NCBI GenBank assembly: GCA_030704615.1 | Contig: CM060734.1 | Location: forward strand, 4,836,001-4,900,000 | DNA length: 64,000 bases | Source: Takakia lepidozioides | Taxonomy: Eukaryota; Plantae; Bryophyta | Direction: 5' to 3' | In this document: piece by piece, positions 3 to 61,448 of the stretch | Layout: the number at the start of each line of letters is the position of its first letter | Position numbering within the stretch: the stretch's first letter is position 1 | Notes under the pieces: model-generated | The model's input: the letters and a program-made list of their open reading frames with translations, nothing else | Databases searched by the model: none | Told to the model about the DNA's origin: nothing | Program-made: the position numbers and the translations under genes

Positions 3-1520
3 GTGAAGCTCAGGGAAGGGCAGAGGACCTCAGATGCAGGGGTCTCTCCCTTCATTTGCTGGCCAACAACGGGCGATGTGGTGTGCTGGACATGTGGAGG
101 ACCCCATGTCAAGAAGGATTGCCCAGAGGGAGGCAAAGGGTCGGCACATGCACAGCCTGCACAGTTGCAGTGTGGGCATTGTGGCAAGCACGGGCATGGA
201 GAGGCCCAGTGTTATGGTTTGCATCCTGAGTTGCGCCCAGGCCAGTTCCAAGGGAACAATGGTGGCGGGGGGAGGTGGAGCAGCCCAGAGAGGACGAGGT
301 GGCCAGCCACGAGGTGCAGGCCAAGGGCAAGCTCAACATGGCCAAGGACGCGGAGGTCAGGGTGTTGACCAAGGCATGGCCAACCGGCTTCAGCAGCTAG
401 AGCAGAGGCTCGCTGCCATGGCTACAGCTCAGGTGGTACCGGCTCTAAGGCCGGATGGTCCACCTCCTGCTCCTGAGGGAGGAGATATGGGAGGCATGGG
501 ATTCATGTGTGGAGCAGCACTACCACTAGTGCAGGTGGAGTCTGCTGCAGCCGTGACTCGAGGAGCAGCACGAGTTCCTGAGCCACGAGGTGCAGAGGTG
601 GAGTTGGATCCACAGCGTGGGGAGGCAAGCCGTCAGGCTAGGCTTCCTCAGTCATTCACATTGGCGGAGACAGTGTCGACGCCATCCATGGCACCTAGTT
701 CTCGCCCGACTGTTACCGAGGCGGAGGTTACTATGCCATTGGGGAGAGCTACACGGGTAGCACCACTACCTAGTGTTGCCAAGGCTACGGCAGCTAGTGT
801 GCTGCTAGGAGCGGCCACATCTGTGTGCCAGGCTCCATTGTTCTCGGCTACCATGATTGCGACGCCGGGGGTAAGACCAGCTGAGGTGTTCAGGCTGGCA
901 GCTACACTCTGTGAGAGTGGGGAGGTTACTTCATCTTCTGCGGAGATAGTGGGAGGTGTAGTGCCGGAGGGATCCTCGGATTTGAGGGTCAAGACTGCCA
1001 CGGCGGCGCCATGGCAAGCTGCAGCTGCCAGGTTGATGGAGCTGCCAGCTAGGCCAGCCATTGAGCGCGCCATGGTGACACCTGGAGTTGTCATGTTAGA
1101 CAACCAGGATGGCATTTTCTGTTTGAGTGGACCGGCAGGCAAGAGGTACCGGCCACTGCGGGTCTTGTTGGACTCGGGAGCTCAGCCATTGATGCTGGGC
1201 AGAGCTGCTATTGCAGGCTTGGGCCTCACGGAGGCGGATATGGAGCCTTGTCCTTTCCAGATACAGACGTCTCTGGGAGGATCGGAGCAGGCTCGGGGCA
1301 TGACACGGCGTGAGTTGGCTATCAGACTACGGCCGGATCACCCTACAGATGGCTCAGTGATGCGAGCCAAGGCCATTGTGACAGACGGTCTCATACGATG
1401 TCCTGGTTGGTGGGGCCAGTGTTGTACCCCATGGGCTTCACCCTGGATTTTTGGGAGGAGTCAGCTTCCTATAGGCCTGCATGGCAGTCAGGGGAGGGCC
1501 GGCGTGTGCAGCTCCCTGTG
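3..1520 (+). pseudogene. Gag C-terminus (two zinc knuckles) and aspartic protease of A1, frameshifted
   Basis: ORFs 3..368, 34..1521, 1398..2138. CX2CX3HX4C and CX2CX4HX4C motifs; RVLLDSGAQPL protease active site near 1160-1190. Confidence 0.88.
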
Positions 1521-1875
1521 ACGTTCATAGGAGGAGTTGCGGTTGCCCAGCGAGGCAAGATGCCGACACTAGCAGCATTCACAGCGGCAGTGAGTTGGCC
1601 TAGAGAGTTGCTTGAGGGCAATGCTCATTCAGAGGATGTACCACCTCCGGGAGAGCAGGATGACATGTATGGTATGGCGGAGTTGCCTACCATGGTTGCT
1701 CAGACTCCATTGTGGGGCACGAGCAAGGATTTGCAGCGGGATGCTGATCGACGGGTGCAACAAGCCTGGGTGGAGGCTTTTGTACCGTCAGAGAGAGGAG
1801 GAGAGTGTGGGGATTGCACCAGGACCACCTCAATTGTCCATTGGACACCACACCTATTGTGTGGCAGTCTCCGGA

Positions 1876-2845
1876 TGAAGGCATTTGTCTTCTGGACTTG
1901 TTTGGCGGGATCAGCACCGGATTGGCTGCTGTGTTACAGGCAGGTGTACGAGTTCGGCGTTACCTGTATGTGGAGAGGGATGAGACTGCACGACGCGTTT
2001 CACTTCGCCATGTTGCTCAGTTGGTGCAGCGGTACCCTGAGTTGTTGTCGGTGTCTGCAATTCGTGGATATCAGCAGGCCTTGCCAGCAGACATTTCGTT
2101 GCTGGGGGGCAGGATTTGGAGCGGGTTGGCTCCATTGATCTGGTAGTGGCAGGTTGGCCCTGCAAGGGCATTCATCAGCCGGGCATGGCAATGGATTGCG
2201 AGACTCGAGGTCGGGTCTGTTTTGGGAGATGGTGCGGGTTTTGCGCCACTTGCAGCTTCATCAAGCTGTATCTCCAGCATACATCTTGGAGAATGTGCCA
2301 CTGATGGGCGATTCTCGGGCCAGGGTGATGGCCAGTGTGCATCAAGTCCGGTCGTGGCTTGGGTCAGCAGTGTTGCTAGATGCAGCTACAGTGGGGTCAC
2401 GGGCTCATCGTCCACGGCTATGGTGGACTAACATGATGCCACCCGCACTGCTCAAGCGTGCATTTGATGGGGTGCAGCGGCCAGCACATCTCACAGTGGA
2501 TAACATTCTGGACACAGGGAGGCAGTCTCAACGTGTGAGACACGATGACCGTTCGCCTTTGGCAGTGGTCAACAAGGTGGGTCAACCACGAGCAGCATTA
2601 CCTACACTGCTCAGCTTCCCAGGATCGCATGCTTTCCGGGATAGTGGACCTGGCCTCCTGTGGGATGCTCAGTTGCAGCAGTTAGTGGAGCCTAATGCTG
2701 ACGAGCGTGAGCGGGCAATGGGTTTTACCACTGGTACCACGGCGGTGTCGTCTCTTTCTGAGGCATCACGTCGTCAAGTGTTGGGGCAAGCAATGGATCT
2801 CAATTGCTTGACCTGGATTATCAGCTTGGCTCTAGCTGAGCAACG
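1876..2845 (+). pseudogene. DNMT3-like DNA (cytosine-5) methyltransferase domain inside the retrotransposon polyprotein (A1)
   Basis: Motifs in canonical order across ORFs 1805..2146, 2116..2304, 2154..2906: I LLDLFGGI, II YVERDE, III ADI, IV DLVVAGWPC, VI YILENV, VIII LDAATVGSRAHRPRLWWTN, IX ERERAMGF, X RRQVLGQAMD. Two 1-nt frameshifts near motif IV. Confidence 0.9.
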
Positions 2846-3109
2846 CAGAGTGCGGATACACTTCCCTCAATGGTCTCTCTGCCTACCGAGACGGTACAGG
2901 CAGTGAGTGGGGGCGAGCATATGAGGACCACGGGGTGCATGCATCCATGGCACACGTGGAGGTGCTCGAGGTTCAGAGGGAGTTGGCAGCCAAGGCAGGT
3001 TGGGGATTCTTCTCGAGTTGAGGAGGTCCTCAAGGATGAGATGATGGGGCAGGATGATGCCTTGTCATTGACTGAGCAGGTAGGGAGTACTGCTCAAGAG
3101 GTTGCAGCA

Positions 3110-3118
3110 TAGCAACCA
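3110..3118 (+). promoter_or_regulatory. Putative stop-codon readthrough signal UAG-CAA-CCA between the DNMT and RT regions
   Basis: TAGCAACCA matches the UAG-CAR-YYA consensus. Frame stays open for 53 codons into RT. Identical in copies A3 and A5. Confidence 0.75.
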
Positions 3119-6100
3119 CGGGACGCGTCCTCTACCTCTAAGCCCACTGGACTTAAGGTTGTAGTTACGGAGGACAATTGGGAGCCTGACATTGGACCCA
3201 TTGTCACCGGAGGAGAGAGACGACGTATACGGCGGTTCCTGAGGGCTTACAGGAATTGCTTTGCCTTCAGTTTGAAGGACTTGGGAGCACTGAAGGGTCA
3301 AGAGATCCGTATTGAGTTGGCCACTGACACGCCAATCTTTCGGAGACCCTATAGATACAGTGACATGGAGAGGTCTTTGATTCAGATGAGGACTCAAGAT
3401 CTCTGGGAGGCAGGTTTGGTGGAGCTCTCTGGTGGAGAGTATGCTTCAGCCACAGTGATGCCAGCCAAGAAGGATGTCTATGGCAATTGGACGGAGAGAC
3501 GTATGTGCGGTGATTACCGGCCTGTAAATCGTCAGACCAAGTCCGATAAGTATGCCATGCCAACACCAGAGGAGATCTTTGATGCCATCGGGCATGCTAA
3601 GGCCTTTAGCACTTTGGATTTACGATCCGGATATCACCAGTTGCCAATCAAGGAGGCGGACAAGCAGAAGACGGCATTCTGGGGGATCAATGAGCACGGC
3701 AAGGATTGCCTATATCAGTGGCGGTTCTTACCATTTGGGCTTAAGAATGCTCCTGCAGAGTTTCAGAGAGTCATGGATAGGATTCTAGCAGGGGTGGACT
3801 TTGCTCGGTGCTACATAGATGACATCATCATCTTTAGTGTTACGATGGAGGAGCATGAGAGACACCTTCAGGTGGTTATTGGAGCGCTTGAGAGCGCACG
3901 GATTGAAGTTGCATCCGGGGAAGTGCAAGTTTTTCCACAACCAGATTGAGTATCTGGGTCACATGATATATCCTGGAGGATTGGGGGTACAGCAGACTAA
4001 GGTAGAGGCCATTGCACAAATTCCACGCCCCACGGATGTGAGCCGAGTTCGAGCTTTCATGGGGTTGGCAAACTATTATAGACGGTTTGTCAAGGGATTT
4101 AGTACCATTGCAAAGGCTCTAACCAAGCTGACCAAGGTGGACCAGGAGTGGCAGTGGGAAAAGAGCAGGAACGAGCTTTTCAAGAGCTCAAGGCGAGGTT
4201 GACCTCGGCGCCTATCTTGAGACGACCTATCAGGGGGCGTCCCTTTCAGCTGCATACGGATTGGAGCATGCTGGGGCTTGGAGCGGTGCTCACACAGGTG
4301 GATGATGAGGGAAGAGAGTTCGTAGTGGCTTACGCTAGCCGCTCGAACAACGCTGCAGAGGCTAAGTACAGCTCATATGAGGGAGAGTGCTTAGCTGCAG
4401 TGTGGGCCGTGGCACACTTCAGGTGCTATCTATACGGCAATCTTTTCACCCTTGTCACGGATCACCAGCCACTCAAGTGGTTGATGGAGTCAGACAAGCT
4501 TACGGGAAGCTTGCACGGTGGGCACTTATACTCCAGGAGTATGACTTTCAGGTTGTGCATCGACCGGGTTTGGTCAATCGGGATGCGGGATGGATTGAGT
4601 CGCAATCCATGCATGAGCCAGCAGGATGACACTGGAGCTCGGTGGCATGGTGAGACGGACGAGGAGATGGTGCCGGGATGGCACGCATCTGCATTTTTGT
4701 GTATCTTGGCATCGGAGGTCAGATTGGACCTACAACAGGGATGACTGTAGACGGAGTGTCTGAGGACCCTGAGGCTAGTGATGAGCTAGGTGGTGCCAGA
4801 GATATACATGAGGATTCGGCTGTGTTGGACTACCTCCGCACGGGAGACACGGCAGCCATTGTGACTGCCAGGGAGAGGGATCGGATCCTGCAACGAGCCA
4901 AGAGGTTCAAGTGGGAGGGGATACACCTACTTCGAGTGTGGGAGGATGGTCGGGTGAGGATTGTGCCTCACCCCACACAGCGTGCACGGTTAGTGCGGCA
5001 TGCCCATGAGGAGTTGGGGCATTTTGGAGTGCGACGCACTCACAGTTTACTGCAGGGGCAGTATTGGTGGCGTGGTATGCATACAGAGGTGCAACAGTTT
5101 GTGGCTAGGTGCATGGTGTGTGACAGGGTGCGTGCTTCATTCAACGCCCCTACACCACAGTTGCATCCTTTACCTATCATGGGATTGGGCTACAGGTGGA
5201 GTTGACTTCGCAGGACCGTTGCCACTGACTATGCGCCACCACAGATATGTGTTGGTGATGGTGGAGCACTTCTCCAAGTGGATTGAGTTGGTTCCATTGC
5301 CTGACAAGGCTAGTGAGGGGGCTGCGTATGCATCTTGGATCGTGTGCTTAGCCGATTTGGTGCTCCAGCTGAGGTACTCACGGACCAAGGGAGAGAGTTC
5401 TTGGGGGAGTTTCAGGCTTTGTGTGATAAAGCCTTGATAGACCACCGCACCACTTCTCGGGATCATCCTGAGGCCGATGGCTTAGCAGAGAGAGTTGTTC
5501 AGACGGTGAAGAGGGGTTTGCGCAAGTATGGCTTGCAGAAGGGACACCTAGGAGATTGGGATCTTCAGGTTCCTTGGTTAGCCATGGGCTACAGGTTCAG
5601 CAAACAAGCATCACTTGCCTCCTTCTCACCATATTTCCTTCTCTTTGGCCGAGAGCCGGATTTGCCTGCAGCCATTCGTAGGGACACTGCTCAAGTCCTT
5701 AACCTTGACGATCCGGACGTGTGGGTACGTGCATGTGATCAGCGTGCAGAGTTGTTCAAGAAAGTCATGCCCATGGCTTTTGAGAACCTTGCCATTGCAC
5801 AGCACCGTGATACGTTGAGGTATGCCACTATACGTGGTGGAGGATATCGTCCTGGGGTTCGGAGGTTTAGCCCTGGTGACTATGTTTATTTGCAGCAGAC
5901 TGCTCCTACGACTCTGGATGTTACTGCAGGGCGTGTTATTCTGAGGGTTCGAGAGGTGTTGCCCTCAGGGGTCCTGATCTTGGAGGGTCGGGATGGCATG
6001 ACTTGGAAGGACCATGTGCGTAATTGTGCGCCATGTCACCTTCCCAATGTCGATGGCAGAGTTGACCCAAACTTGGCAGTGGTACCTGCAGGTTTGAGGT

Positions 6101-6244
6101 GCATGCTCTGTGGGTCTGCCAAAGGGGCAGCCACCATGCTGGTGTGTGATCGATGCTCAAGGGGTTGGCATATGGGATGCTTGACACCACCTCTTGAGAA
6201 GGTTTCCTGACGGAGATTGGTTGTGTCCACACTGCTTGGGATAG
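3113..6244 (+). pseudogene. RT-RNase H-integrase-PHD finger of A1, several frameshifts
   Basis: ORFs 3272..3949, 3819..4202, 4148..4744, 4678..5205, 5000..5437, 5335..6210. PHD CMLCG..VCDRC..WHMGC at about 6100-6240. Confidence 0.92.
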
Positions 6245-6504
6245 TGGCAGTGGACATGACTGGAGGCAGCTAACAAGACATGGGAGGCCAAGCTCATAGG
6301 AGTCAATACATGAGATCCCAAGCTCAAGTTCACAGGTTGCAAGACGGCGACTAACGATGGGGCAACTCTTGCACCCGGCCTCTTGATCTATCGAGTTTGA
6401 GTGTAGTAGGGATAGTGGTGGAGGACTTAGTGAGGCTATGGTCACTATCACATCTTGTGGCTACCTGGACTTAGAGGGACCTAAGCACCAGCTAGGGGGG
6501 CGAT

Positions 6505-7207
6505 TGTGTGGACTAGTGACTGCCATAGTGGGCAGCGTAGTGGCAGCCTAGTGACTGACTAGTTGTAGCCTAGTGGTTGGACTAGTGGCTGGACTAGTGG
6601 ACTAGTGGTATACTAGTGTGTGGTGTGCATGTGTTGTGTGGTTTTGGACAGCGATGTAGTTGTGTGTAGCGATATGTATGCGCACGACAGCTGTCAAGTT
6701 ATTTTACCACTAGTGTGAAACTAGCTAGGAAATAGCTAGCTTTTACATATTGACATTTGGGATTGGCCCAAGTGTCAATCCAGGGGTCAAGGCAGATTTA
6801 GGCCCTGGAGTGGTTATCTTCACGGCAAGCGTGGGAGGCTCATCTTTCTCGAGTTGAGCCTCACCGCGCCTAGCTATGGCGCCGTAGTGTGGATTCCCCA
6901 TGGCGTGGGGTGCACTTGGCTTGACTTGTATTTGAGTGATGAGGTTATATATGCATGAGTTTATGCTTCAGCTTTGTGAGCTCGCATGAGCTTGTGCTTG
7001 TATTCTTCTTCTTTATCATTGTGTGGACTAGTGACTGCCATAGTGGGCAGCGTAGTGGCAGCCTAGTGACTGACTAGTTGTAGCCTAGTGGTTGGACTAG
7101 TGGCTGGACTAGTGGTATACTAGTGGTATACTAGTGTGTGGTGTGCACATGTGTTGTGTGGTTTTGGACAGCGATGTAGTTGTGTAGCGATATGTATGCG
7201 CACGACA
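6505..7207 (+). repeat. 3' terminal B-A-B structure of A1 (B 6505-6689, GC, A 6692-7018, T, B 7020-7207)
   Basis: Direct repeat TGTGTGGACTAG...GCACGACA on both sides of TGTCAAG...TTATCA. B contains tandem GGACTAGT-type units. Confidence 0.9.
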
Positions 7208-10200: not shown

Positions 10201-10574
10201 TGCCGACAAGTTGGGCCGCCCAGGACGTTGAGGAACCGGCAGTAGCGGCGGTACTGGAAAAACGCGAGCGTTTGTTGAAGCTCACAAAGTACAACATTGC
10301 CAAAGCTAGGAAACGGTATGAAAGGCAGGCGAATCGGAAGCGGAGGGAAGTGAAGTTTGAGGCAGGCACAGAGGTCTGGTTGAACATCAAGAATTTCCGA
10401 CTACCTCCGGAAGTGAGTCCAAAGTTCGTGCCTCCGTATGCGGGACCCTTTCGCATTCGGAAGGTTATGAATGAGGATGTGTATGAATTGGAGCTGCCGG
10501 CAAACAGCAAGGTGCACCCAGTATTCCAGGTCTCCCTTTTGAAGCCTTACTTCAAAGATGAAGCGCGTCCGAAT
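7208..10574 (+). mobile_element. Chromovirus copy C1, body (end of gag, PR, RT, RNase H, integrase), degenerate
   Basis: [49 protein letters not shown]. Colinear with C2 at 23552-26924. Breaks at 10574. Confidence 0.92.
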
Positions 10575-11119
10575 ACCTATCCACCAGCTAGGGGGGCGAT
10601 TGTGGCAGACTACTTTATTGTGTGGTGTGGTTTGGACAGCGATGTAGTTATGTAGCGATACGTATGCGCACGACAGCTGTCAAGTTAAATAAGCACAGTG
10701 TGAAAACAACTAGAATAAAGCTAGTTATTTGTATTTAACACTTGGATTTAGGTCAAGTGTTAAATCAGGTGTCAAGTTTAGTTTGACACCTGAACCGCCT
10801 TATCTTCACGAGAGCGGCAGTCGCGCAGCTCATCTCTCTCGAGTTGAGCGTGCGCAACCGAGCTCCTGCATTGTTTAGGACTGAGTGTGCTTATGATGGG
10901 AGTATAGGTTGTTGTGGGGTGGAGTCCCCATAGCTTGGGGTGCCCTTGGCTCGACTTCTGTTTTAACGAGTGATAGCGATGGATTTCATGTTGTTTCTGG
11001 TGTGAATAGTGTGTCTCTTAGCTTGTTCTATCATTGTGGCAGACTACTTTATTGTGCATATATGTGTGGTGTGGTTTGGACAACGATGTAGTTATGTAGC
11101 GATACGTATGCGCACGACA
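10575..11119 (+). repeat. Displaced 3' end of Family A copy A4: PPT plus B (10601-10675), GC, A (10678-11033), T, B (11035-11119)
   Basis: Near-identical to the A5 3' terminus (reverse complement of 49648-50200). Continues the A4 3'UTR that stops at 17314. Confidence 0.88.
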
Positions 11120-11374
11120 CCGAGAATGGCTAAGTCCCAGATCTGACTGGGCCTCTTAGGCCAACTGTGAATTTATATGGTCCCGTGAACAAAACCCGCT
11201 CACACTTGACGTGGCATAAGGTTAAGGTGGCTCTTTTGACGGATTATATGACGGCAGTTTTGACTGGCCATTACAACTAGTAGTTTGACCAAGTAATACG
11301 GAACTTAATACACCACTTTACCACCGTGTCTGCCATATGTATGTCAAAGGGAATGCCACGAGGGATGAGCAGTG

Positions 11375-14300
11375 TGTCGTGCACCTAAGCATCGTGCCAC
11401 AACATACATCCCTGTCTACCATACATTCTAAGCACACAATCCTAGAAAACTATGCCACAATCACCTCCCTAGCTGATGATTAGGTCCCTCTAACACCGAA
11501 TAGCTGACAAGTATCCATCTCAATAAGATCATCGCTTGGTCTTCAATCGCACATGACCCAATTTTCTAAAGTATATGGATCAAGAGGCCGGGTGCAATGA
11601 GAGCCCCATTGTTAGTCGCCTACTTGCAATCCATGATCTTCAATTGAGTATCCATGGCGTTGAGCTCCCACCAGCTAGACCTTGGATCACTTGTCAACTA
11701 CACCATTGTCATGCCCACTACCTATGGCCAAGGCATCGTGGACACAACCATTCTCTACTAGGAACCTCCTCAAGTGGCGGTGTCAAGCATCCCATGTGCC
11801 ACCCCCTTGAGCATTTGTCACACACCAACATAGTTGCGGCACCACCAGCATGCCCACATAGCATGCAACGCAACCCTGCAGGTACCACTGCAAAGTTGGG
11901 ATCTATCCTCCCATCCACATGTGGAAGGTGACATGGCGCACAATTGCGCACATGGTCCTTCCATACCATGCCATCTCGACCCTCCAGAATCAACACTCCT
12001 GAAAGCAACACCTCCCGGACCCTTAGAATCACACGTCCTGCTGTGACATCCAAAGTCGTAGGCGCTGTCTACTGCAGATACACATAGTCCCTAGGGTGGA
12101 AACGCCGAACACCTGGCCGATATCCCCCTCCACGTATAGTGGCGTACCTCAATGTGTCTCGGTGTTGGGCAATAGCAAAGTTCTCAAAAGCCATAGGCAT
12201 GACTCTCTTGAACAACTCTGCCTGCTGGGCACATGCTTGTGTCCACACATCCGGATCATCAAGGTTGAGGACTACTGCAGTCTCCCTACGAATAGATGCA
12301 GGCAAATCTGGCTCTCGGCAAAAAAGAAGAAAATAAGACGAGAACGAGCAAGTGATGCTTGTTTGCTAAACCTGAGCCCATGGCCAAAAGGTAGCAGGTT
12401 CCAATCTCCTAAGTGTCCCTCTTGGTAAGCGTGGAAGGCTTGACTATTTGTCACACACCTCTCTGCTAGGCCATCAGCCTCGGATGATCCCGAGAAGTAG
12501 TGCAGTGATCTATCAAGGCTTGCTCACACAAAGCCTGAAACTCCCCCAAGAACTCTCTCCCCTGGTCCGTGAGTACCTCTGGCTGGAGCACCAAATTGGC
12601 TAAGCACTCGATCTAAGAATGCATATGCAGCCCCCTCACTTGCCTTGTCAGGCAATGCCACCAGTTCAATCCACTTGGATAAATGTTCTACCATCACCAG
12701 CACATACTTGTTATGGCGAATCGTTAGTGGCAATATTGGGCCTGCGAAGTCAAGACTCCAACGATAGCCCAAACCCATAATGGGTAAAGGATGCAATTGT
12801 GGAGTAGGTGCATTGAACGAAACCCGCACTTTATTACACATCATGCACCTTGCCACTAACTGTTGCACATCCATGTGCATGCCCCGCCACCAGTACTGTC
12901 ATTGCAGCAAATTATGAGTGCGCCGCACCCCAAAATGTCCCAACTCCTCATGGGCATGGCATACCGATCGCGCTCGTTGTGTTGGATGAGGCACAATCCT
13001 CACTCGTCCATCCTCCCATACTCGGAGTAGGTGAGTCCCCTCCCACTTGAACCTCTTGGCTCGTTGTAGGATCCGATCTCTCTCCTTAGCAGTCACACTG
13101 GCTGTTGTCTCTCCTGTACGAAGGTAGGCCAGCACTGCTGCATCATCATATACATCATTAGCACCATCAAGCTCCTCACTGATCTCCGGATCGTCATGCA
13201 CACCATCTATATGACCAATCCTATGGGATGGACTAGCTTGAGCTCCCATTGCTAGGATGCACAAAAAGGCAGATGCATGCCATCCTGGCACCATCTCCTC
13301 ATCCGTCTCACCATGTCACCGTGCTCAAGTATCATCATGCTCGTTCGTGCATGGATTACGACTCAACCCATCTGCATCCCGATTGACTATACCGGCTCGA
13401 TGCACCACCTGGAAGTCGTACTCTTGAAGCATAAGTGCCCACCATGCAAGCTTCCCTCTAAGCTTGTCTGACTCCATCAACCACTTCAATGGTTGGCGAT
13501 CCGTGACAAGGGTGAAGAGGTTGCCATAGAGGTAGCATCTGAAATGTGCCACTGCCCATACCGCAGCTAGACACTCCCCTTCATATGAGCTATACTTCAC
13601 CTTGGCATCATTGTTCGAGCGGCTGACATATGCCACTACGAACTCTCTTCCCTCGTCATCCATCTGTGTGATCACTGCTCCAATTCCCAGCATACTCCAA
13701 TCCGAATATAGCTAGAAAGGCCGCCCCCGAATAGGCCGCCTCAGAATAGGTGCAAAAGTCAATCGAGCCTTGAGTTCCTCAAAGGCTTCCTCTTGTTCCT
13801 CCTCCCACTGCCACTCCTGACCCACCTTGGTCAACTTGGTAACAGCCTTTGCAATGCTGCTAAATCCCTTGACAAACCGTCAATAGTAGTTTGCCAACCC
13901 CATGAAAGCACGAACTCTGCTAACATCTATGGGGTGTGGAATGCGTGCAATGGCCTCCACCTTCGTCTTTTGAACACCCTATCCTCCAGGGTATATCATG
14001 TGGCCCAGATACTCAATCTGGTTGTGGAAGAACTTGCACTTCCCAGGGTGCAATTTCAACCCATGCGTTCTCAAGCGCTCAAATACACCTGAAGGTGTCT
14101 CTCATGTTCCTCAACCGTAGCACTAAAGACGATGATGTCATCAATGTAACACCGGGCAAAGTCTAGCCCCACGAGAATCCTATCCATAACCCTCTGAAAC
14201 TCTGCAGGAGCATTCTTCAACCCAAACGGTAGGAATCGCCATTGGTACAAGCAATCCTTCCCATGTTGGTCAATCCCCCAGAATGTCGTCTTTTGCTTGT

Positions 14301-15461
14301 CAGCCTCTTTGATTGGCAACTGGTGGTAACCGGATCGCAAGTCCAATGTGCTAAATACCTTTGCATGCCCAATGGCATCAAAGATCTCCTCTGGAGTTGG
14401 CATGGCATATCTATCGGACTTAGTATGACGATTCACAGGACGATAGTCCCCACACATCCTTCTTTCTGTCCAATTGCCATAGATATCCTTCTTAGCTGGC
14501 ATCACCGTTGCCGAGGCATACTCCCCGCCTGACAACTCCACCAATCCAGCTTCAAACAACTCTATAGTCCGTGATTGGATCAAAGACCTCTCCATATCAC
14601 TATACCTGTAGGGCCTTCGAAAAATTGGCGTGTCACTTGCCAAATCAATATGAATCTCCTGGCCCTTCAAACTCCCCAAATCCTTCAAACTGAAGGCAAA
14701 GCAATTTCTATAAGCCCTTAGAAATCGCTGGATCCTTCGTCTCTCTCCTCCGGTGACTGTAGGTCCAACATCTGGTTCCCAGTTGTCCTCAGTGACTGCA
14801 ACCTTGGGTACACCAGGCTTGGAGGTAGGAGACGCATCCTTTGGTTGCTAGATAGCAACCTCTTGGGCCTTATCCGCCCACCCTGACCGTGGCGTAGCCT
14901 CCACTTGCTCCGCCATAACCACCTTGAGAACATCCTCTGGGGAAGGAACATTCTCAACCTCTTCAAAAACATTGGCCACCTTGGCCTCCAACTGATCCTC
15001 AGTGTATGGCTCTCCCCACTCCTCATATTGCTGCTTGAGAGATCCAAGGACTCTCTCTTTCTGCATCTCATCCCACATCTGCCATGGATGTTTGCACCCC
15101 ATGATCCTGTGCTCGCCCCCACTCACTGCCTCAACCGTCCCGGTTGGCAGAGGGGATACAATCCAAATGGGAGTGCAGAAGTAGCCACCACTGTCTGCAA
15201 CCTCTGTTGCTCAGCCATGCACAAGCCAATGACCCATGTCAAGCAATTTAGATCCATTGCTTGACCCAACACATGTCGACGTGATGCCTCTGACAGAGCT
15301 GGCATAGCTGTAGTGCCCGTGGCAAATCCCATTGCCCGCTTTCGCTCATCAGCATTGGGCTCCACCAATTGCTGTAGCACACTGTCCCAAATCAACCAAG
15401 GACCATTGTCTCAAAAAGCATGAGACAAGGGAAAGTTCATGAGCGTAGGCAAGGCCGCACG
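11375..15461 (-). mobile_element. Family A copy A3 (divergent subfamily), 3' part: DNMT C-terminus, readthrough stop, RT-RH-INT-PHD, PPT, single B repeat (11375-11459)
   Basis: ORFs 15123..15395 (ERKRAMGF, RRHVLGQAMD), 14071..14688 RT, 13325..13693 RH, 12524..12880 INT, 11718..12053 PHD. TAGCAACCA at 14850-14842. Interrupted at 15461 by the C1 LTR. Confidence 0.9.
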
Positions 15462-22552: not shown

Positions 22553-22554
22553 CT

Positions 22555-22566: not shown

Positions 22567-22607
22567 TTAGAGTTCAGTACGCGATCGTCCTTGGGATTGG
22601 CCTCATC

Positions 22608-28796: not shown

Positions 28797-28801
28797 TATC
28801 C

Positions 28802-31800
28802 CCTGATAGTTTTTCCTTAACTCCTCGAAGAACTCCACAACTGGGTTAAAGGCAGGCACGGGTGTTGGTGCTGCAGCAAGAGCTTGGGTGGACTTCCCAG
28901 CTCCTATTCCACTTGATATCCCACTGCTGCTTGCAGAAGCTACCGGTGTAGCTGCCGATGTCACCACTGCCCTTGTGCCTCTAGTGATAGAGACATAGTC
29001 AGGTGACCAATACACCCGCCATTCCTCAATCTCCACCTCATGTCCCCGCCTAAACTCATGGTAGTCATTCATGGGCGGCCCCTCAAGGTGTTGAAACAGC
29101 CCCTTCCACGCCATAAAAGGCGTAAACAGTTGTGGATTGCGCATCTGCTGCAAATCACACCAACTATCAAACTCATGTATGAAATCATCAAGCTCGATGG
29201 TGCCCACAGCTCCAGAGTACCGACGTGGCCCCTTGGTAGCTCCATACATTTCCTCCATCGTATCCCACAACAATGGTATGGAAATGGCTTGCACCCTCGG
29301 CGAGAATCCTCCTAACTCTGAGTCTGAACCTTCCTCAAAAGACACTGAAAGTGAAGGTGGTCTAAACCGCACACCTCGTCTTGTAATCCCACTAGTATCG
29401 CTGGTGCTCGTACCGGCACTCTCCTCAGTAACTGTTGGCACCTCCGTGATGAAAACTCACAACCACACCTGTTGTAAACCTGTCTCTAATCCCCCTTTCC
29501 ACAAGGTAACCGGGTAGAGAACTTGTTGCGGCTTATGGCTTAGACTACTAGGTTCGTAACGTAAACTTGCACTTGCATCCACCGCAAGCACTCCTATGGT
29601 CTGCTGGTCATCAACCCAGCCTCACCATAAGAGAAACAATGATGGTCTGACTGGTCATCACCCCAGCCTCACCACCGACAGCACGCTCTAGGATTGACCA
29701 GTGATCAAATCCGGACCAACCTCCTATGAAAACAAGCGCCCACACAAAACTAACATGGCGCACAGTCAAGCATGCAGGTGTGGAGGGGATCCAAACACAA
29801 GAAAATCAAGACAGCAACTCCCCCACACCAAAAACACTCCACAGTGTCGCTCCTGCAATGACACCCCAGCCCAAACCCGGACTGACTCTTGCCTCCACCT
29901 ACGAAAAGCTTTTGGCCTACAGAGAGGGTGAAAGACTACAAGGAAGAGAGACTAAAGCAATTTCTAATCCCAGCATGCCCTCATCCCACTATCCTATCTC
30001 CACACTCTCTTGCTTGAACAATAGACAATACTACCTTTCAAGGGTCTCTCAAATAACTCTCCAGGAGCCCTCAAGAATATGTCTCTCAAACAATCTCACT
30101 AAGGCTCCCAATCCTTGCACAATGGGACTCCAAAACAGTACACCAAGGCCCCAAGAGCCTGCCAAAACTTAGCCCTCGAGGACCCCAAATAGTCCCTCAC
30201 ACAAGTCGCCAAAGACTCCTCAAGCTCGCCAAATATTGGCTTCCAAGGACCCCAAATAGTCCTCCAAATAACTCCAAATGGTCCTCCCAATGGTCCTCCA
30301 AGGACCCCAAACAGTCCTCCAATGACTCCCAATGGTCTTCCAAATAGTCCTCCAAGGACTCCCAATGGTCCTCCAAACAGTCCTCCAAGGACTCCCAATG
30401 GTCCTCCGAATGGTCCTCCAAGGACCCCAAACAATCCTCCAAGGACTCTTCCTATGTCACCATGTTCCCAATGTGTTCCCAAGTTCCCAATGGGTTCCTA
30501 ATTAAGTTCCCTAAGAATATACCATAGTATTCCCCCAGTATTTCCCTAGGCCTATACGTATTCTCCTTGTATTCCTCTTGTATTCTCCTTAGGAATAGCC
30601 ATTTCCCCCTCATAGAGTAGTTCACTTCCCCCCAGGGTTTAGCCATTCCCTCCTAGGCTTTAGCCACTTCCCCCTCTATTTCCTTGAGGTTTAGCCTTAC
30701 CAAGCTAGGGTTTGTGCTCCTTGGGGCTCTATGCTTAATCCCCTCAAGCATCCATGAATTCTCTGGGGTACCATGGCAAATTCCCTTGATCTTCTTCACC
30801 TTAAGCTACTCAAGCTTGTCTCAACTAGCAATGCATTGGCCACACAACAAGCTCAATTTCTCATTGGAACTCAAAATCAAGCTTGTACCTCCTTTGGCAA
30901 GCCACCAAGCCTTGTCTCCTCTCAAGCCTTGGTCATTCAAGCTCCATTCACTTGCTAGCTCAAGAGCCATTCCTCTCAAGCTTGAAACTGCAAAGCTCAA
31001 GCCAAAAGCATGCTCCACACATGCATCACCTCATACACAAGGGAATCAACTTGCTCCTTTTACCTTCTAGCTCTCCTCAAGCTTGAAATTGGAAGCCACA
31101 CTTGGGAAGCATGCTCCACATAAGCATCACTTGCTTGATCAACCATCCACCACAAAACTTAAGCCAAAAGGGAATGAATACATGAGCTTCACCTTTCCTT
31201 TCTTTGTCTTGTCACATGCTAATGTATGGTTGAAGTTGCTATGCATGCCTTGAGCCACAATCTCTTTTCTTCATGAAGACCACCTCCAATGATCTCCCAC
31301 ATGTGCTCCAAGCTCTTCAATGCTCTAGGCTTGGTTTCACATCATCATGGATAGAATTTTCACCCATTATAACCTTTGCAAGCCTTGTAATACAAGAGCT
31401 AAATTCTCCTTGCTCTCAATTCCTTGGTGTATGCAACTTCACCAAACACCTTTCCTTGCAAGCCTTGTGATCTACAAGAGCTCCATCTTTGAGCTCTCTA
31501 CCTCCTTAGGGCAAAGCAATATCTCTCAAAGCCCTAATACCACAAGGATTTTCCTTTGCAATATATGCAACACTTTGCAACACAAGAGCTATCTTCCCAA
31601 GCTCTTCAACACACAAGTGCTAAACTAACCCTTACACTCCACACTCACAAGCATAAGGTCATCTTCTTGTAGTGATAATGAAAGTGAACACAATGGAAAC
31701 ACTCCACTCATGAATCCACTCAATCATATAAACTAAGTCAAGCCAAGGGCACCTTTGCTAAAGGAATCCACCCTACAAAGCCCTCACCACACTCCTTCTC

Positions 31801-32039
31801 AATACCTAGAGCTATGGAGGTGGGAGAGGCTCATGGAGGCTCAACTACAAGAAGATGAGCCCTTCTCAACACTCATAAGGGGAAAACCCATCCCTATGTC
31901 CCAAGTGAGGTTTGACACCTCACTTTGGCATGTGAGACCAAATGAAGTCCCAACACACAAAATACAAATATAAATATCCAAAATGTCCTAGTTAACTAGA
32001 AGTAGGTAATTCCAGTTAACCAAGACTAAAACCATGACA
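28802..32039 (-). mobile_element. Family A copy A6, 5' part: terminal repeat A (31673-32039), self-complementary PBS, long leader, gag N-terminus
   Basis: ORF 28755..29441 (GAVGTIELDDFIHEFDSWCDLQQMRNP) is homologous to A5 gag. Starts TGTCA at 32039; repeat ends TATCA at 31673. Leader block 29465-29890 is conserved with A5. Confidence 0.85.
30175..30450. repeat. Degenerate ~12-bp-period tandem repeat in the A6 leader
   Basis: Reiterated GGTCCTCCAAAT / AGTCCTCCAAGG / ACTCCCAAT units. Confidence 0.85.
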
Positions 32040-49647: not shown

Positions 49648-50177
49648 TGTCGTGCGCATACATATCGCTACACAACTACATCGCTGTCCAAACCACACCA
49701 CACATATATGCACAATAAAGTAGTCTGCCACAATAGATAGAACAAGCTAAGAGACACACTGCTCACACCAGAAACAACATGAATCCATCGTTATCACTCT
49801 TTAAAACAGAAGTCGAGCCAGGGGCACCCCAAGCTGTGGGGACTCCACCCCACAACAACCTACACTCCCATCATAAGCACACTCAAATCTAAACGCATGA
49901 AGGAGCTCGATCGTGCAGGCTCAACTCGAGAGAGATGAGCTACGCGACTGCCGCTCTCGTGAAGATAAGTCGGTTCAGGTGTCAAACTAAACTTGACACC
50001 TGATTTAATACTTGACCTAAATCCAAGTGTTAAATACAAATAACTAGCTTTATTCTAGTTGTTTTCACACTGTGCTTATTTAACTTGACAGCTGTCGTGC
50101 GCATACATATCGCTACACAACTACATCGCTATCCAAACCACACCACACATATATGCACAATAAAGTAGTCTGCCACA
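49648..50177 (-). repeat. 3' terminal B-A-B structure of A5
   Basis: 85-bp B copies flank the 357-bp A. PPT TAGGGGGGCGAT at 50189-50178. Confidence 0.93.
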
Positions 50178-50437
50178 ATCGCCCCCCTAACTGGTGGATA
50201 GGTCCCTCTAACTCCAGATAGCTATAAGATGTAATAGCCACAGCCGTACTAAGTCCTCTATCACTGTCCCTATCGTGCTCAAACTCTATCAACCAAGAGG
50301 CCGGGTATAAGAGTAGCCCCATCGTTAGTCACCGTCTTGCAATCTGTGAACTTGAGCCAATATCTCGTGTGTTCAAGGTCTCTTAGTAGCTTGGCCTTGC
50401 ATTTCTTGTTAGCTTTCCATGGTTGTATCCACTCCCA

Positions 50438-53400
50438 TTATCCAATGCAATGTGGACATAACCAATCCCCATCCGGAACCATCTCAAGAGGTGGAGTCAA
50501 GCATCCCATATGCCAACCTCTAGAGCATCGATCACACACCAGCATGGTGGCTGCCCCTTTAGCAGACCCACACAACATGCACCTCAAACCTGCAGATACC
50601 ACTGCCAGGTTTGGGTCAATCCTGCCATCGACATTCGGAAGATGACATGGCGCACAATTACGCACATGGTCCTTCCAAGTTATGCCATCCCGACCCTCCA
50701 AGACCAAGACGCCTGAGGGCAAGACCTCTCGAACCCTCAAAATAACACGTCCTGCAGTCACATCCAGGGTCGTAGGAGCAGTCTGCTGCAAATAGACATA
50801 GTCACCAGGGTTGAATCTCCGAACCCCAGGACGATAGCCCCCACCACGTATGGTAGCATACCTCAACGTATCACGGTGTTGTGCAATGGCAAGGTTCTCG
50901 AAAGCCATGGGCATGACTCTCTTGAACAACTCCAGATCGTCAAGGTTAAGAACTGTAGCAGCTTCTCTGCAAATGGATATAGGCAAATCCGGCTCTCGGC
51001 CAAAGAGAAGAAAGTATGGTGAGAAGGAGGCAAGTGATGCTTGCTTGCTGAACCTGTAGCCCATGGCTAACCACGGTAACTGAAGGTCCCAATCTCCTAG
51101 GTGTCCCTTCTGCAAGCCATACTTGCGCAAACCCCTCTTTACTGTCTGAACAACTCTCTCTGCCAAGCCATCAGCCTCAGGATGATCCCGAGAAGTGGTG
51201 CGGTGGTCTATCAAGGCCTTGTCACACAAAGCCTGAAACTCCCCCAAGAACTCTCTCCCTTGGTCCGTGAGTACCTCAGCTGGAGCACCGAATTGGCTAA
51301 GCACACAATCCAAGAATGCATACGCAGCTCCCTCACTAGCCTTATCAGGCAATGGAACCAATTCAATCCACTTGGAGAAGTGCTCCACCATCACCAACAC
51401 GTACTTGTTGTGGCGCATGGTTAGTGGCAACGGCCCTGCGAAGTCAAGACTCCACCTGTAGCCCAATCCCATGATTGGAAGAGGGTGCAATTGTGGAGTA
51501 GGGGCGTTGAATGAAGCACGCACCCTGTCACACACCATGCACCTAGCCACAAATTGTTGCACCTCTGTGTGCATACCATGCCACCAATACTGTCCCTGCA
51601 GTAGGCTATGGGTGCGTCGCACCCCAAAATGCCCCAACTCCTCGTGGGCATGCCGCACTAACCGTGCCCGCTGTGTTGGGTGAGGCACAATCCTCACTCG
51701 ACCATCCTCCCACACTCGGAGCAGGTGTGTCCCCTCCCACTTGAACCTCTTGGCTCGTTGTAGGATCCGATCCCTCTCCTTGGCAGTCATAGTGGCTGCA
51801 GTGTCTCCAGTGCGGAGGTAGTCCAACACAACTGAATCCTCATGTATATCTTTGGCGCCACCTTGTTCATTGCTGGCCTCAGGGTCCTCAGACACTTGAT
51901 CTACAGTCATCCCTATTGCAGGTCCAACCTGGCCTTCCGCTGCCACAATACACAGAAATGCAGATGCATGCCATCCGGGCACCATCTCCTCGTCCGTCTC
52001 ACCATGCCACCGAGCTCCAGTGTCATCCTGCTGGCTCGTGCATGGATTGCGACTCAACCCATCTGCATTGCGATTGATCAAACCCGGTCGATGCACCACC
52101 TGAAAGTCATACTCTTGAAGGATGAGTGCCACCGTGCAAGCTTCCCCGTAAGCTTGTCTGACTCCATCAACCACTTGAGTGGTTGGTGATCCGTGACAAG
52201 GGTGAAGAGATTGCCGTATAGATAACACCTGAAGTGTGCCACGGCCCACACTGCAGCTAAGCATTCACCCTCATATGAGCTATACTTAGACTCTGCAGCA
52301 TTGTTCGAGCGGCTAGCATAAGCCACTACGAACTCTCTCCCTCATCATCCACCTGTGTGAGCACCGCTCCAAGCCCCAGCATGCTCCAATCTGTATGTAG
52401 CTGAAAAGGACGCCCCCTGATAGGTCGTCTCAAGATGGGCGCCGAGGTCAACCTCGCCTTGAGCTCTTGAAAAGCTTGTTCTTGCTCATCTTCCTACTGC
52501 CACTCCTGGTCCACCTTGGTCAGCTTGGTTAGAGCCTTTGCAATGGCACTGAATCCCTTAACAAACCGTCTGTAATAGTTTACTAACCCCATGAAAGCTC
52601 GAACTCGGCTTACATCCGTGGGGCGTGGAACCTGTGCAATGGACTCTACCTTAGTCTGCTGTACCCCCAATCCTCCAGGATATATCATGTGACCCAGATA
52701 CTCAATCTGGTTGTGGAAAAACTTGCACTTTCCCGGATGTAACTTCAATCCGTGCGCCCTCAAGCCCTCAAATACCCCCTGAAGGTGTCTCTCATGCTCC
52801 TCCACCGTAGCACTAAAGATGATGATGTCATCTATGTAGCACCGAGCAAACTCCACCCCTGCTAGAATCCTGTCCATGACTCTTTGAAACTCAGCGGGAG
52901 CGTTTTTAAGCCCAAATGGTAAGAACCGCCACTGGTATAGGCAATCCTTCCCGTGCTCATTGATCCCCCAGAATGTCGTCTTTTGCTTATCCGCCTCCTT
53001 GATCGGCAACTGGTGATATCCGGATCGTAAATCCAACGTGCTAAAGACCTTGGAATGCCCAATGGCATCAAAGATCTCCTCTGGTGTCGGCATGGCATAC
53101 CTATCGGACTTGGTCTGACGATTTACAGGCCGGTAATCACCGCACATACGTCTCTCCGTCCAATTGCCATAGACATCCTTCTTAGCTGGCATCACTGTGG
53201 CTGAAGCATACTCTCCACCAGAGAGCTCCACCAAACCTACCTCCCAGAGATCTTGAGTCCTCATCTGAATCAAAGACCTCTCCATGTCACTGTATCTATA
53301 GGGTCTCCGAAAGATTGGCGTGTCAGTGGCCAACTCAATACGGATCTCTTGACCCTTCAGTGCTCCCAAGTCCTTCAAACTGAAGGCAAAGCAATTCCTG

Positions 53401-53537
53401 TAAGCCCTCAGGAACCGCCGTATACGTCGTCTCTCTCCTCCGGTGACAATGGGTCCAATGTCAGGCTCCCAATTGTCCTCCGTAACTGCAACCTTAAGTC
53501 CAGTGGGCTTAGAGGTAGAAAACGCGTCCCGTGGTTG
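50438..53537 (-). pseudogene. RT-RNase H-integrase-PHD of A5
   Basis: ORFs 52494..53378 (RT, CYIDD), 52078..52326 (RH), 50438..52264 (INT plus C4HC3 PHD). A few stops and frameshifts. Confidence 0.93.
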
Positions 53538-53829
53538 CTATGCTGCAACCTCTTGAGCAGTACTCCCTTCGTGCTCAGTCAATGACAAGGCCTCATCCTG
53601 CCCCATCATCTCATCATTGAGAACCTCCTCAACCTGAGAAGAATCCCACACCTCATCTATCACAGCTGTCTTGGCTGCCAACTCCCTCTGGACCTCGAGC
53701 ACCTCCCACGTGTGCCATGGATGTCTACACCCCGTGGTCCTCACCGTCTCGCCCCCACTCGCTGCCTGTACCGTCTCGGTAGGCAGAGAGACCGTCAAGG
53801 TAAGTGCACTCCGCACTCTACGTTGCTCA

Positions 53830-54790
53830 GCCATAGCCAAGCTGATAATCCAGGTCAAACAATTGAGATCCATTGCTTGCCCCAACACTTGACGCCGTGA
53901 TGCCTCAGAAAGAGAAGGCACCGCCGTGGTCCCAGTGGAAAACCCCATAGCCCGCTCTCGCTCGTCGGCATTAGGCTCCACTAACTGCTGCAACTGAGCA
54001 TCCCACAGGAGGCCAGGTCCACCATCCCGAAAAGCATGGGATCCTGAGAAGCTGAGCAGTGTAGGTAATGCTGCTCGTGGTTGACCCACCCTGTTGACCA
54101 CTGCCAAAGGCGAACGGTCATCGTGTCTCACACGTTGAGACTGCCTCCCTGTGTCCAAAATGACATCCATGGTGAGGTGTGCTGGCCGCTGCACCCCATC
54201 AAATGCACGCTTGAGCAGTGCGGGTGGCATCAAGTTAGTCCACCAAAGCCGTGGACGATGAGCCCGTGACCCCACTGCAGCTGCATCCAGCAACACTGCT
54301 GACCCAAGCCACGACCGGATTTGATGCACACTGGCCATCACCTTGGCCCGAGAATCACCCATCAGTGGCACATTCTCCAAGATGTATGCTGGCGATACAG
54401 CTTGGTGAAGCTGCAAGTGGCGCAAAATCCGCACCATCTCCCAAAACAGACCCGTCCTCGAGTCTCGCAATCCATTGCCATGCCCGGCTGATGAATGTCA
54501 TTGGCAGGGCCAACCTGCCACTACCAGATCAATGGAGCCAACCTGCTCCAAATCCGGCGCCCCCAGCAACGAAATGTCTGCTGGCAAGGCTTGTTGGTAT
54601 CCACGAACTGCAGACACTGGCAACAAAGCAGGGTACTGTTGTACCAACTGAGCAACATGGCACAGTGAGACGCGTCATGCAGTCTCATCCCTCTCCACAT
54701 ACAGGTAACGTCGAACTTGTACACTTGCCTGTAGCACAACACCCAATCCGGTGCTGATCCCGCCAAACAAGTCCAGAAGGCAAATGCCTT
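53830..54790 (-). pseudogene. DNMT3-like C5 methyltransferase domain of A5
   Basis: In one frame with the protease: LLDLFGGI..YVERDETA*..DLVVAGWPCQ*HS..GLFWEMVRIL..YILENV..RAHRPRLWWTN..ERERAMGF..LGQAMD. Two copy-specific stops. Confidence 0.92.
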
Positions 54791-57740: not shown

Positions 57741-58259
57741 GTGACACTATAAGGCTCTAGTACTAATCTAATAGTGACACGGGTGGGCACCTGTTGCAGT
57801 TTAAGGGTCATATCCCAATGGCTCAGGGCACCTGCACCTGCATCCACCGCAAGAACTCCTATGGTTGGTTGGTCATCAACCCAGCCTCATCATAGAAGAA
57901 ACACTGGTGGTCTTGCTGGTCATCACTCCAGCCTCACCACCGACAGCATACTCTAGGATTGACCGGGGATCAAATCCGGCCTAATCCCTATGAAAGCAAG
58001 CGCCCACACAAAACCAACATGGCGCACAGTCAAGCATGTAGGTGTTGGGGGGGATCCAAACACAAGAAATCAAAACATCAACACCCCCACACCAAAATCC
58101 AGCTGCAATGCTGATCCTGCAGAATAGCCCAGCCCAAAACCCCGGACTGACTGGCCTCCATCAAGAGAGGCTTTGGCAACTACAAGTACAAGGTAATGAA
58201 AATAGTACAGAGATGGAGGGGAAGAATAGAAGCCCGACCAAGCAAGATCTAATCCTGAT

Positions 58260-59009
58260 CTATGCTATCAACTGCCAGACTTCTCTCAAAGTGCCTCGCT
58301 CTGCATGATGGTAAGGTATAGGAGGTATATCTATGTCCAGAAACCTGCCACTAACCTTGTCCCAAGCTACAGTAGCTCGCTCTAACCAACCCTCCTCCTC
58401 TGTCTGCCAGGTAGAGACAAAGCAATACTCCCCTATCTCCCGCTCACTAAACACTAAAGAAAACAAAGGTAGGGTCTGATAGTCTCTCAACTCAAAAGCT
58501 TTGAGACGGTTGCGGGTGTCCTCATTGCGAATGATTGCATCTCCTTCAAACAGAACAAACTTGTCCTCGCTAATGAACCCCCACTCGTGGTTGCCTTGTG
58601 CAGAGCGTGTCCGGCTGCAACGTTGTCTGATTGCACAAACTTGTGTAGCTCCTGCTCCTCTACTCCAGTACACCACGGCCTTGTGGCTGAACACCTTGGT
58701 CCCCGGGGCTGTCTTTGGCTGTGTTCCAAGCCTAGCTTTCACCCACTTTGGTATTTCACCTACAGCTGCAGAACTGCTGGCTCCAATAGAGTTCTGACTG
58801 TCCAAAGCGATATTGAGGCCCTCAATGCCAACTATAGCAGTCTGTTGTCCACTGCTAATGCCTGACTCCCAGTATGCAATCAACTCGTCCAACTGTTCTC
58901 CACTCAAATCAGTCTGAGTTCCTTGGGAAACATAAATCTTGCCCCCTTGTGTGCACAGGCTAAGAGACGAGACCTGCCCTTCAATTACGTCCTCATTTCC
59001 CCCAGCCAT
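58260..59009 (-). CDS. Intact 249-aa extra ORF of unknown function in the A5 leader, sense to gag
   Basis: ATG-initiated, uninterrupted, globular-looking composition. No family recognised. Confidence 0.5.
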   Translation of the reverse strand: MAGGNEDVIEGQVSSLSLCTQGGKIYVSQGTQTDLSGEQLDELIAYWESGISSGQQTAIVGIEGLNIALDSQNSIGASSSAAVGEIPKWVKARLGTQPKTAPGTKVFSHKAVVYWSRGAGATQVCAIRQRCSRTRSAQGNHEWGFISEDKFVLFEGDAIIRNEDTRNRLKAFELRDYQTLPLFSLVFSEREIGEYCFVSTWQTEEEGWLERATVAWDKVSGRFLDIDIPPIPYHHAERGTLREVWQLIA

Positions 59010-61092: not shown

Positions 61093-61448
61093 TGATAGAA
61101 CAAGCTAAGAGACACACTGCTCACACCAGAAACAACATGAATCCATCGCTATCACTCTTTAAAACAGAAGTCAAGCCAGGGGCACCCCAAGCTATGGGGA
61201 CTCCACCCCACAACAACCTACACTCCCATCATAAGCACACTCAAATCTAAACGCATGAAGGAGCTCGGTCGCGCAGGCTCAACTCGATAGAGATGAGCTA
61301 CGCGACTGCCGCTCTCGTGAAGATAAGGCGGTTCAGGTGTCAAACTAAACTTGACACCTGATTTAACACTTGACCTAAATCCAAGTGTTAAATACAAATA
61401 ACTAGCTTTATTCTAGTTGTTTTCACACTGTGCTTATTTAACTTGACA
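61093..61448 (-). repeat. 5' terminal repeat A of A5 (no B)
   Basis: TGTCAAG...CTATCA directly abutting the TSD. Copy at 49734-50090. Confidence 0.93.

Follow-up and report, generated by a model that had tools for sequence, protein, structure and literature searches.

A predicted DNMT3-like cytosine methyltransferase on the Gag side of a conserved stop codon in Ty3/Gypsy retrotransposons of a land-plant-like host

Why a transposon should keep its host's own silencing enzyme has been an open question since 2018, when Dnmt3 was described in the Pol ORF of Gypsy elements of Klebsormidium nitens, with DIRS-like repeats and Ka/Ks <0.2 (de Mendoza 2018, PMC5890265). The same question is raised by the window, i.e., the whole 64,000 nt stretch of DNA analyzed here. 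The core phenomenon is already published for the alga (KnitGypsy-Dnmt3, PMC5890265), and later papers cite the 2018 finding as one in 'streptophytes', without detail in the portions available. What is added here is the presence of close relatives in liverworts and Sphagnum, a Gag-side location of the enzyme ahead of a conserved stop, the wide range of the phenomenon in green plants and the anatomy of the element ends.

The window contains two copies, A1 and A5, with a methyltransferase (DNMT) domain and a third, A3, with part of it (Table 1). A1 and A5 share 91% identity over 6.5 kb, and A3 has ~80% identity to each of them. Six-frame translation of the plus strand of A1 gives the motifs LLDLFGG (1889), VERDE (1970), PADI (2084), AGWPC (2149), LENVP (2286), HRPRLWW (2406), EPNADER (2688) and LGQAMD (2781). 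The eight counterparts on the minus strand of A5 have the same order, at 54779, 54698, 54584, 54518, 54380, 54260, 53978 and 53885. The domain is flanked by the protease (PR; LLDSGAQ at 1165 in A1 and 55505 in A5) and by the reverse transcriptase (RT; YIDD at 3812 and 52838). On the minus strand of A3 only the C-terminal third is present, from position 15461, the rest being severed by the LTR of a nested chromovirus. The element has the Ty3/Gypsy order PR, RT, RNase H (RH) and integrase (INT) with a DDE integrase; no chromodomain is seen in A1 or A5. The original prediction placed non-permuted methyltransferase motifs between protease and RT in A1, A5 and partly A3. All motifs that it named are located in that order, and the position between protease and RT is borne out.

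In A5, Gag, PR and DNMT share one frame, which extends over 1328 codons from 57524 to 53540; it is broken by five premature stops but by no frameshift. A5 alone therefore demonstrates the fusion without recourse to a consensus. The domain is disrupted in A1 by two frameshifts, near 2106 and 2165, and in A5 by two stops, at 54677 and 54500. The prediction that lesions differ from copy to copy over an underlying Gag-PR-DNMT frame thus holds, though one A1 lesion lies within two codons of one A5 lesion, both just past the catalytic PC.

Table 1. Positions of the retrotransposon features in the window
Feature	Position	Strand	Remarks
DNMT3-like methyltransferase domain, copy A1	1850..2860	+	three frames; frameshifts near 2106 and 2165
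DNMT3-like domain, copy A5	53802..54827	-	catalytic PC, ENV, RxR; stops at 54677, 54500
A1 Gag C-terminal part and aspartic protease	7..1521	+	LLDSGAQ at 1165; A1 5' end precedes window
Conserved stop TAG CAA CCA between DNMT and RT, A1	3110..3118	+	predicted readthrough site
A1 RT, RNase H, integrase, PHD finger	3113..6210	+	frameshifted
A1 3' end	6489..7207	+	polypurine tract (PPT), B1 ~6503-6689, GC, A 6692-7017, B2 7018-7207; palindrome GACAGCTGTC at 6686
Isolated PPT-B-GC-A-B end of a further A5-like copy	10575..11119	+	
Copy A3, 3' part	11375..15461	-	DNMT C-terminal third, TAG CAA CCA at 14850, RT-RH-INT-PHD, ends PPT-B only
DNMT-less body, probably belonging to the 10575..11119 end	19906-17313	-	
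gag of the A3-subfamily copy at 28797..32039 resumes	21823-20412	-	beyond nested chromovirus
5' part of A3-subfamily copy	28797..32039	-	repeat A, self-priming site (15/15), gag start
Complete copy A5	49648..61448	-	TGTC...GACA ends, 4-bp target duplication CCCA, layout A-internal-PPT-B-GC-A-B
A5 internal palindrome GACA-GC-TGTC	50087..50096	-	links B1 to second A; each half matches one end of the element
A5 RT, RNase H, integrase, PHD finger	50441..53537	-	
A5 ORF1 Gag-protease-DNMT	53540..57524	-	one frame, five premature stops, ends at conserved TAG (codon starts 53540)
A5 primer-binding site	61079..61093	-	not tRNA-like; pairs with 15-nt stretch in repeat A; predicted self-priming

An HMM search of Pfam, which had been proposed as a check, gives a DNA_methylase match with E=6e-13 for the A5 domain with X at its two stops. 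The best PDB sequence match of this domain is DNMT3A (1.2e-10), followed by DNMT3B and then M.HhaI (2e-4) and DRM2 (0.03), the DRM2 match being confined to residues 13–138. With a 54-sequence profile the values are 1.7e-22 for DNMT3A vs 1.5e-7 for DRM2. The circular permutation of plant DRM is not found; the motifs run in order from I to X. The predicted structure of the A5 domain has a pLDDT of 88.6 and a pTM of 0.90. Every Foldseek row shown for this model is a DNMT3. A wide structural search has DNMT3B (Z 27.1, rmsd 2.8, 277 residues) and DNMT3A (26.4) on top, with M.MpeI (23.4), M.HhaI (21.7) and DNMT1 (17.6) lower down, and the ESM Atlas matches are DNA_methylase clusters only. PDB sequence matches, profile and predicted fold all bear out the earlier assignment as DNMT3-like and not DRM-like, and they support the domain being a DNMT3-like cytosine methyltransferase, a predicted enzyme. 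The target-recognition region has no HMMER alignment to DNMT3A, and the sequence specificity is therefore not readable from it.

Residue conservation was counted in 173 matches among 186 related proteins. The catalytic Cys is present in 84 of the 92 homologues that cover the column and the Glu of ENV in 122 of 131, and the two Arg of motif VIII are conserved in 130/158 and 139/158. Two algal-type relatives (proteins P0250 and P0233) display GWEC in place of GWPC in motif IV. Host DNMT3 proteins (DNMT3A/B; PpDNMT3b, PMC6453930) have motif order and fold in common with the window domain, but identity is 20–25% and the target-recognition region has diverged. Unlike them, the window domain is intronless, is fused to Gag-protease and has no PWWP or ADD domain. 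DUF3444 is absent in the 48 relatives scanned.

Each of the three window copies has the sequence TAG CAA CCA between DNMT and RT (3110 in A1, 14850 in A3 and 53540 in A5). A census of this stop comprised 62 copies with both anchors, i.e., the three window copies and 59 of 80 related loci; these loci are mostly of one family, and some represent the same insertion, hence they are not independent. When the frame is read back from RT, the first stop encountered is TAR-CAA in 49 of the 62 copies, and in 37 of those 49 it is in frame with DNMT. The other 13, which include a subfamily with another stop context, do not have TAR-CAA. In most related loci the stop is followed by CAA CCC and then ATG, which is short of the full CAR-YYA and makes reinitiation possible there. 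Two full-length Marchantia Gag-PR-DNMT proteins stop 98 residues past motif X, which fits the same stop, and natural uninterrupted PR-DNMT-RT-RH-INT-PHD polyproteins exist among the relatives (P0157, P0159). A divergent subfamily (L053, L054, L055, L057, L064 and L070) has the stop context GTA TAR RTG upstream of RT, and Pol expression may therefore differ in it.

CAR-YYA after a stop is a known plant readthrough signal (PMC2754532, PMC2194720). The conserved stop assigns the enzyme to the Gag-side ORF, and its CAR-YYA context indicates that Pol of the window element is likely made by stop readthrough. The predicted embedding of the enzyme in a Gypsy polyprotein thus stands as far as its position between protease and RT is concerned; a continuous Pol ORF does not, since the stop puts the domain in the Gag-side ORF. 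The readthrough systems described in those two papers have the context UAG-CAA-YYA, as here, but here the leaky stop comes after protease and DNMT and not after gag alone. In KnitGypsy-Dnmt3 the DNMT is reported in the ORF of RT (PMC5890265), whereas in the window element it is in the same frame but separated by the conserved stop (A1, A3, A5 and most related loci).

Selection on the domain was assessed by dN/dS (Nei-Gojobori). For A1 vs A5 (324 codons) the DNMT value is 0.29, with 32 synonymous and 28 non-synonymous changes (Fisher p 5e-6); for A5 vs A3 (88 codons) it is 0.09 (p 2e-15). The former compares close, decayed copies, the latter is the between-subfamily comparison that had been proposed, and both values are well below 1. 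The corresponding RT values are 0.14 and 0.035, and DNMT may be less constrained than RT/RH/INT (p 0.06 and 0.08). Both DNMT values agree with the original view that the domain is probably under selection, and purifying selection on it is supported. Close, old related copies show dN/dS of 0.4–0.64 for DNMT and 0.4–0.53 for RT; the increase is alike in both and is attributable to decay after insertion. Related loci have 12.5 stops per 1000 codons in DNMT and 10.5–15.4 in RT, RH and INT, a similarity that fits a domain intact at insertion. Of 50 related loci in which 300 codons or more are mapped (nearly the full domain), only three have a stop-free domain, and all six key residues checked are kept in 19/50. 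Summed contig depth in one DNA run, which is not a copy number, is near one million over DNMT and RT alike, and this match argues that the domain is not a rare chimera.

A homology search produced 189 proteins of similar length and 35 longer ones. Named matches, among 120 listed of the 189 and the longer ones, are from Calypogeia, Marchantia, Riccia and Sphagnum, with up to ~70% identity. Marchantia polymorpha has uninterrupted Gag-PR-DNMT ORFs that are annotated as genes (Mp_4g09160 and Mp_8g17980; proteins P0122 and P0123). A profile search gave 613 clusters at E<1e-30. Among the best 150 of these, DNMT is located after RT/RNase H and before integrase in 72, immediately ahead of integrase but in a protein lacking RT in 18, before RT in 14, and alone in 46. 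Names for distant relatives come from 30 proteins that were looked up, few of them named. The named members of the RT-RNase H-DNMT-integrase-PHD form (e.g., P0225, P0181, P0148, P0185) are the chlorophytes Scenedesmus and Hariotina, and those of the pre-RT form are Klebsormidium nitens and Closterium. The two architectures are split in an unrooted DNMT tree (SH-aLRT 99; 40 chosen rows, retrotransposon domains only) and likewise in an RT tree (92; 27 rows). The A5 DNMT clusters with liverwort proteins in the unrooted DNMT tree with a support of 100. A search seeded on a distant domain produced four proteins. One Closterium protein (P0303) has a DNMT of the clade joined to a Copia-type gag (Retrotran_gag_2), which may represent a third architecture or result from chimerism or faulty annotation. 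It is likely that the element type is spread across the green lineage. In the literature covered, which excludes most subscription papers, no published account was found of such elements in land plants or chlorophytes, of the stop or end mechanism, or of the RT-RNase H-DNMT-integrase architecture.

KnitGypsy-Dnmt3 resembles the window element in being a Ty3/Gypsy element with an intronless, non-permuted Dnmt3-like domain, purifying selection and DIRS-like split repeats (PMC5890265); its host is an alga, whereas that of the window element is land-plant-like. Over 322 residues, the A5 domain shares 37% identity with GAQ93235.1, a zinc knuckle-protease-DNMT protein of K. nitens (P0312). This protein is on the A5 side of the unrooted DNMT split (SH-aLRT 99) and has the same polyprotein position, but it forms a long branch. 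Pairwise identity is higher with a Scenedesmus domain (42%) than with K. nitens (37%). The available text on KnitGypsy-Dnmt3 does not mention the self-priming, internal palindrome, 4-bp duplication or PHD finger of the window element. PHD fingers do occur in Chlamydomonas Gypsy polyproteins (PMC11244446, PMC10952607, PMC6673714, bioRxiv 2022.06.16.496473). SymbioDIRS-Dnmt3 (PMC5890265) shares a retrotransposon-borne cytosine methyltransferase and the A-coding-B-A-B layout, and CG methylation by these Symbiodinium domains has been demonstrated; it has a tyrosine recombinase, whereas the window element has a DDE integrase and 4-bp duplications. EpiLTRs (bioRxiv 10.64898/2026.05.21.726589) also carry a cytosine methyltransferase, but theirs is sister to DNMT4 and, unlike that of the window element, is accompanied by DAM and a chromodomain.

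The element ends show DIRS-like split repeats in the layout A-coding-B-A-B, complete in A5. The B-A-B 3' layout is present in A5, A1 and a third end (10575..11119); A3 ends in B only. Exact 4-bp target duplications flank A5 and five distinct full-length loci (L051, L056/L059 as one insertion, L016, L071 and L034). B precedes the 5' A in none of 18 loci with 15 distinct flanks, and an A-B-A-I-B copy is likewise seen in none of the 18. B1 and B2 of one copy are 91–100% alike, and five loci show no fixed difference between the two. The junction of A with B2 has a one-base overlap in most copies and one extra base in A5. At the same junction L051 has an insert of ~18 bases (10838–10857) that resembles an end-joining scar.

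The complement of the A5 primer site is found at 15/15 positions in the 3' A (49938) and 14/15 in the 5' A. Primer-site complements of 15/15, 15/15 and 12/12 occur in three subfamilies whose sequences differ, and none of 500 shuffles is as good. The same test on 13 related loci is weak in four (12–27 of 500 shuffles as good) and shows no self-priming in three. Tf1/sushi-type elements self-prime from a primer site that is complementary to the LTR (PMC6317226), as is that of the window element. Reverse transcription would very likely be self-primed in the window element also.

If the LTR is taken as B+A, exactly A-I-B-A-B results when the cDNA is first joined at its ends and then cut at the internal palindrome. 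Foamy virus integrase cleaves the palindromes of 2-LTR circles (PMC1180852). There, as here, the palindrome consists of two processed ends, but here it lies inside the LTR and not at the LTR-LTR junction. A circle would have two palindromes, yet A-B-A-I-B copies are not seen in the 18 loci, and the circle model thus needs an unexplained bias. The chances are about even that the ends of a cDNA with B+A LTRs are joined and that integrase then opens the circle at the internal GACA-GC-TGTC, with A-I-B-A-B as the result. PPT-B alone is found at nine related 3' ends and in A3; recombination or short-read collapse could give the same. The interpretation of A3 as a 1-LTR circle product was not adopted. 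L034 and L048 have one 3' flank yet end in B vs B-A-B, so that deletion between B1 and B2, or a collapsed assembly, is enough of an explanation. It may also be that the A3 halves derive from separate copies.

The window has other features as well. A DNMT-less chromovirus (21827–28796, plus strand) is nested in A3-type gag and has ~730-bp LTRs, a TATCC duplication and a tRNA-type primer site (TGGTATCAGAGC). A second chromovirus copy is represented by 7210–10574 together with 17313–15462. Reciprocal chromovirus/A5-like junctions at 10575 and 17313 suggest an inversion of 10575–17313 between nested elements. In the A5 leader, positions 59264–60907 have a contig depth of about one thousand in one DNA run, roughly a thousandfold below the rest of A5. 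Pieces of this segment match parts of longer contigs in two sequencing runs guessed to be RNA, and it has no Pfam match; it is likely a captured host-gene fragment. Host genes are a plant-type GH17 beta-1,3-glucanase (41380–42471, plus strand) and an HMG-box coding stretch (44785–45327, minus strand). The glucanase and the clustering of A5 with liverwort proteins suggest a land plant as host. There are degenerate tandem repeats at 32300–32920, rich in AAACCCT-like motifs, and at 61525–61956, with a 191-bp period, just outside the A5 5' end.

The CpG observed/expected ratio is 0.46–0.54 in the DNMT elements, 0.85–0.93 in the nested DNMT-less chromovirus and 0.46 in flanking host DNA. The chromovirus ratio is far above that of host DNA and may reflect a recent arrival. 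As the depletion is just as strong in host DNA, that of the elements can be explained without self-methylation, and CpG depletion was ruled out as a footprint of it. C-to-T changes between A1 and A5 amount to 7.1% in CG, 6.4% in CHG and 4.1% in CHH, a mild CG bias that is also present in the chromovirus pair. Comparison of the DNMT elements with chromovirus and host DNA reveals no self-methylation footprint in CpG ratio or C-to-T context.

The window thus displays decayed Ty3/Gypsy copies whose Gag-protease frame ends in a selected DNMT3-like domain, and the reading that is somewhat favored is that intact copies package the enzyme and methylate their own new cDNA. ORF1 extends through Gag-PR-DNMT to the conserved stop, and RT-RH-INT-PHD follows in the same frame. 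Occasional readthrough of the stop would probably produce the full polyprotein, with DNMT and protease, being on the Gag side of a leaky stop, made at Gag-like levels far above those of RT. With similar probability, the protease would then free an active SAM-dependent C5 methyltransferase. It is a little better than an even prospect that the enzyme acts in cis on cDNA, as has been proposed by de Mendoza 2018 (PMC5890265), so that the new copy would enter the genome already methylated. Such a premethylated copy would either resemble host heterochromatin or limit itself.

The enzyme may instead be active in trans or after insertion, made from Gag-side transcripts and directed at genomic copies or at other host DNA, whose methylation would curb copy number or alter the host methylome. 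The Gag-side position leads one to expect high enzyme levels, several uninterrupted Marchantia Gag-PR-DNMT ORFs are annotated as genes (P0122, P0123), the PHD finger on the integrase ties the element to chromatin, and both host benefit and trans effects are discussed by de Mendoza 2018 (PMC5890265). Fusion to Gag and protease, however, favors packaging, and host DNMT3b of Physcomitrium already yields 95% of CHH methylation (PMC6453930); action in trans is considered unlikely. An equally improbable alternative is that the domain serves mainly to bind DNA or RNA, e.g., in holding cDNA ends for joining or shielding the internal palindrome, with catalysis secondary or on RNA. It would account for the GWEC variants in two relatives, the lack of a clear methylation footprint above host background and the occurrence of the domain in two different polyprotein positions. 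The Klebsormidium domain was also inactive in yeast, with no de novo methylation by KnitGypsy-Dnmt3, an assay that its authors called inconclusive (PMC5890265). SAM-binding and catalytic residues are, however, kept across very divergent clusters, and Symbiodinium retrotransposon Dnmt3 domains methylate CG (PMC5890265).

The proposal of an assembly chimera, or of a neutral passenger that was recently taken over from host DNMT3, is contradicted by the selection and distribution results and is highly improbable. It would be consistent with the broken state of all three window copies, the scarcity of stop-free domains (3/50) and the dN/dS of 0.4–0.64 in close, old copies. RT is equally raised (0.41–0.53) in those old pairs, however, and dN/dS between subfamilies is 0.09–0.29. 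Proteins of Klebsormidium, Closterium, liverworts and mosses have the domain at this position too, and the DNMT and RT trees separate the two architectures alike. Packaging of the enzyme and methylation of new cDNA remains the preferred reading. A wider form of it is doubtful as a whole. According to this, an ancient green-lineage clade of PHD-finger Ty3/Gypsy elements, with hundreds of families in chlorophytes, charophytes, liverworts and mosses, would carry a DNMT3-derived enzyme that is active and occupies either of two slots in the polyprotein. Land-plant members would make it at Gag level, ahead of a leaky stop, and load it into particles, and it would methylate self-primed cDNA, which would integrate via a 2-LTR circle opened at the palindrome inside the LTR, a route unlike that of standard LTR elements.

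The previous sole Gypsy example was from an alga and had a negative yeast assay. Uninterrupted relatives in Marchantia polymorpha, a genetic model, make the activity of the enzyme, its sequence context and its effect on the host methylome testable. Such elements may inflate counts of DNMT genes in seed-free plants, and LTR finders that demand two matching terminal repeats would miss them. If the circle route is true, it would be a natural case of an integrase using an internal palindrome. A wide spread of these elements would recast what was supposed to be a lineage-specific capture as an old trait of green plants.
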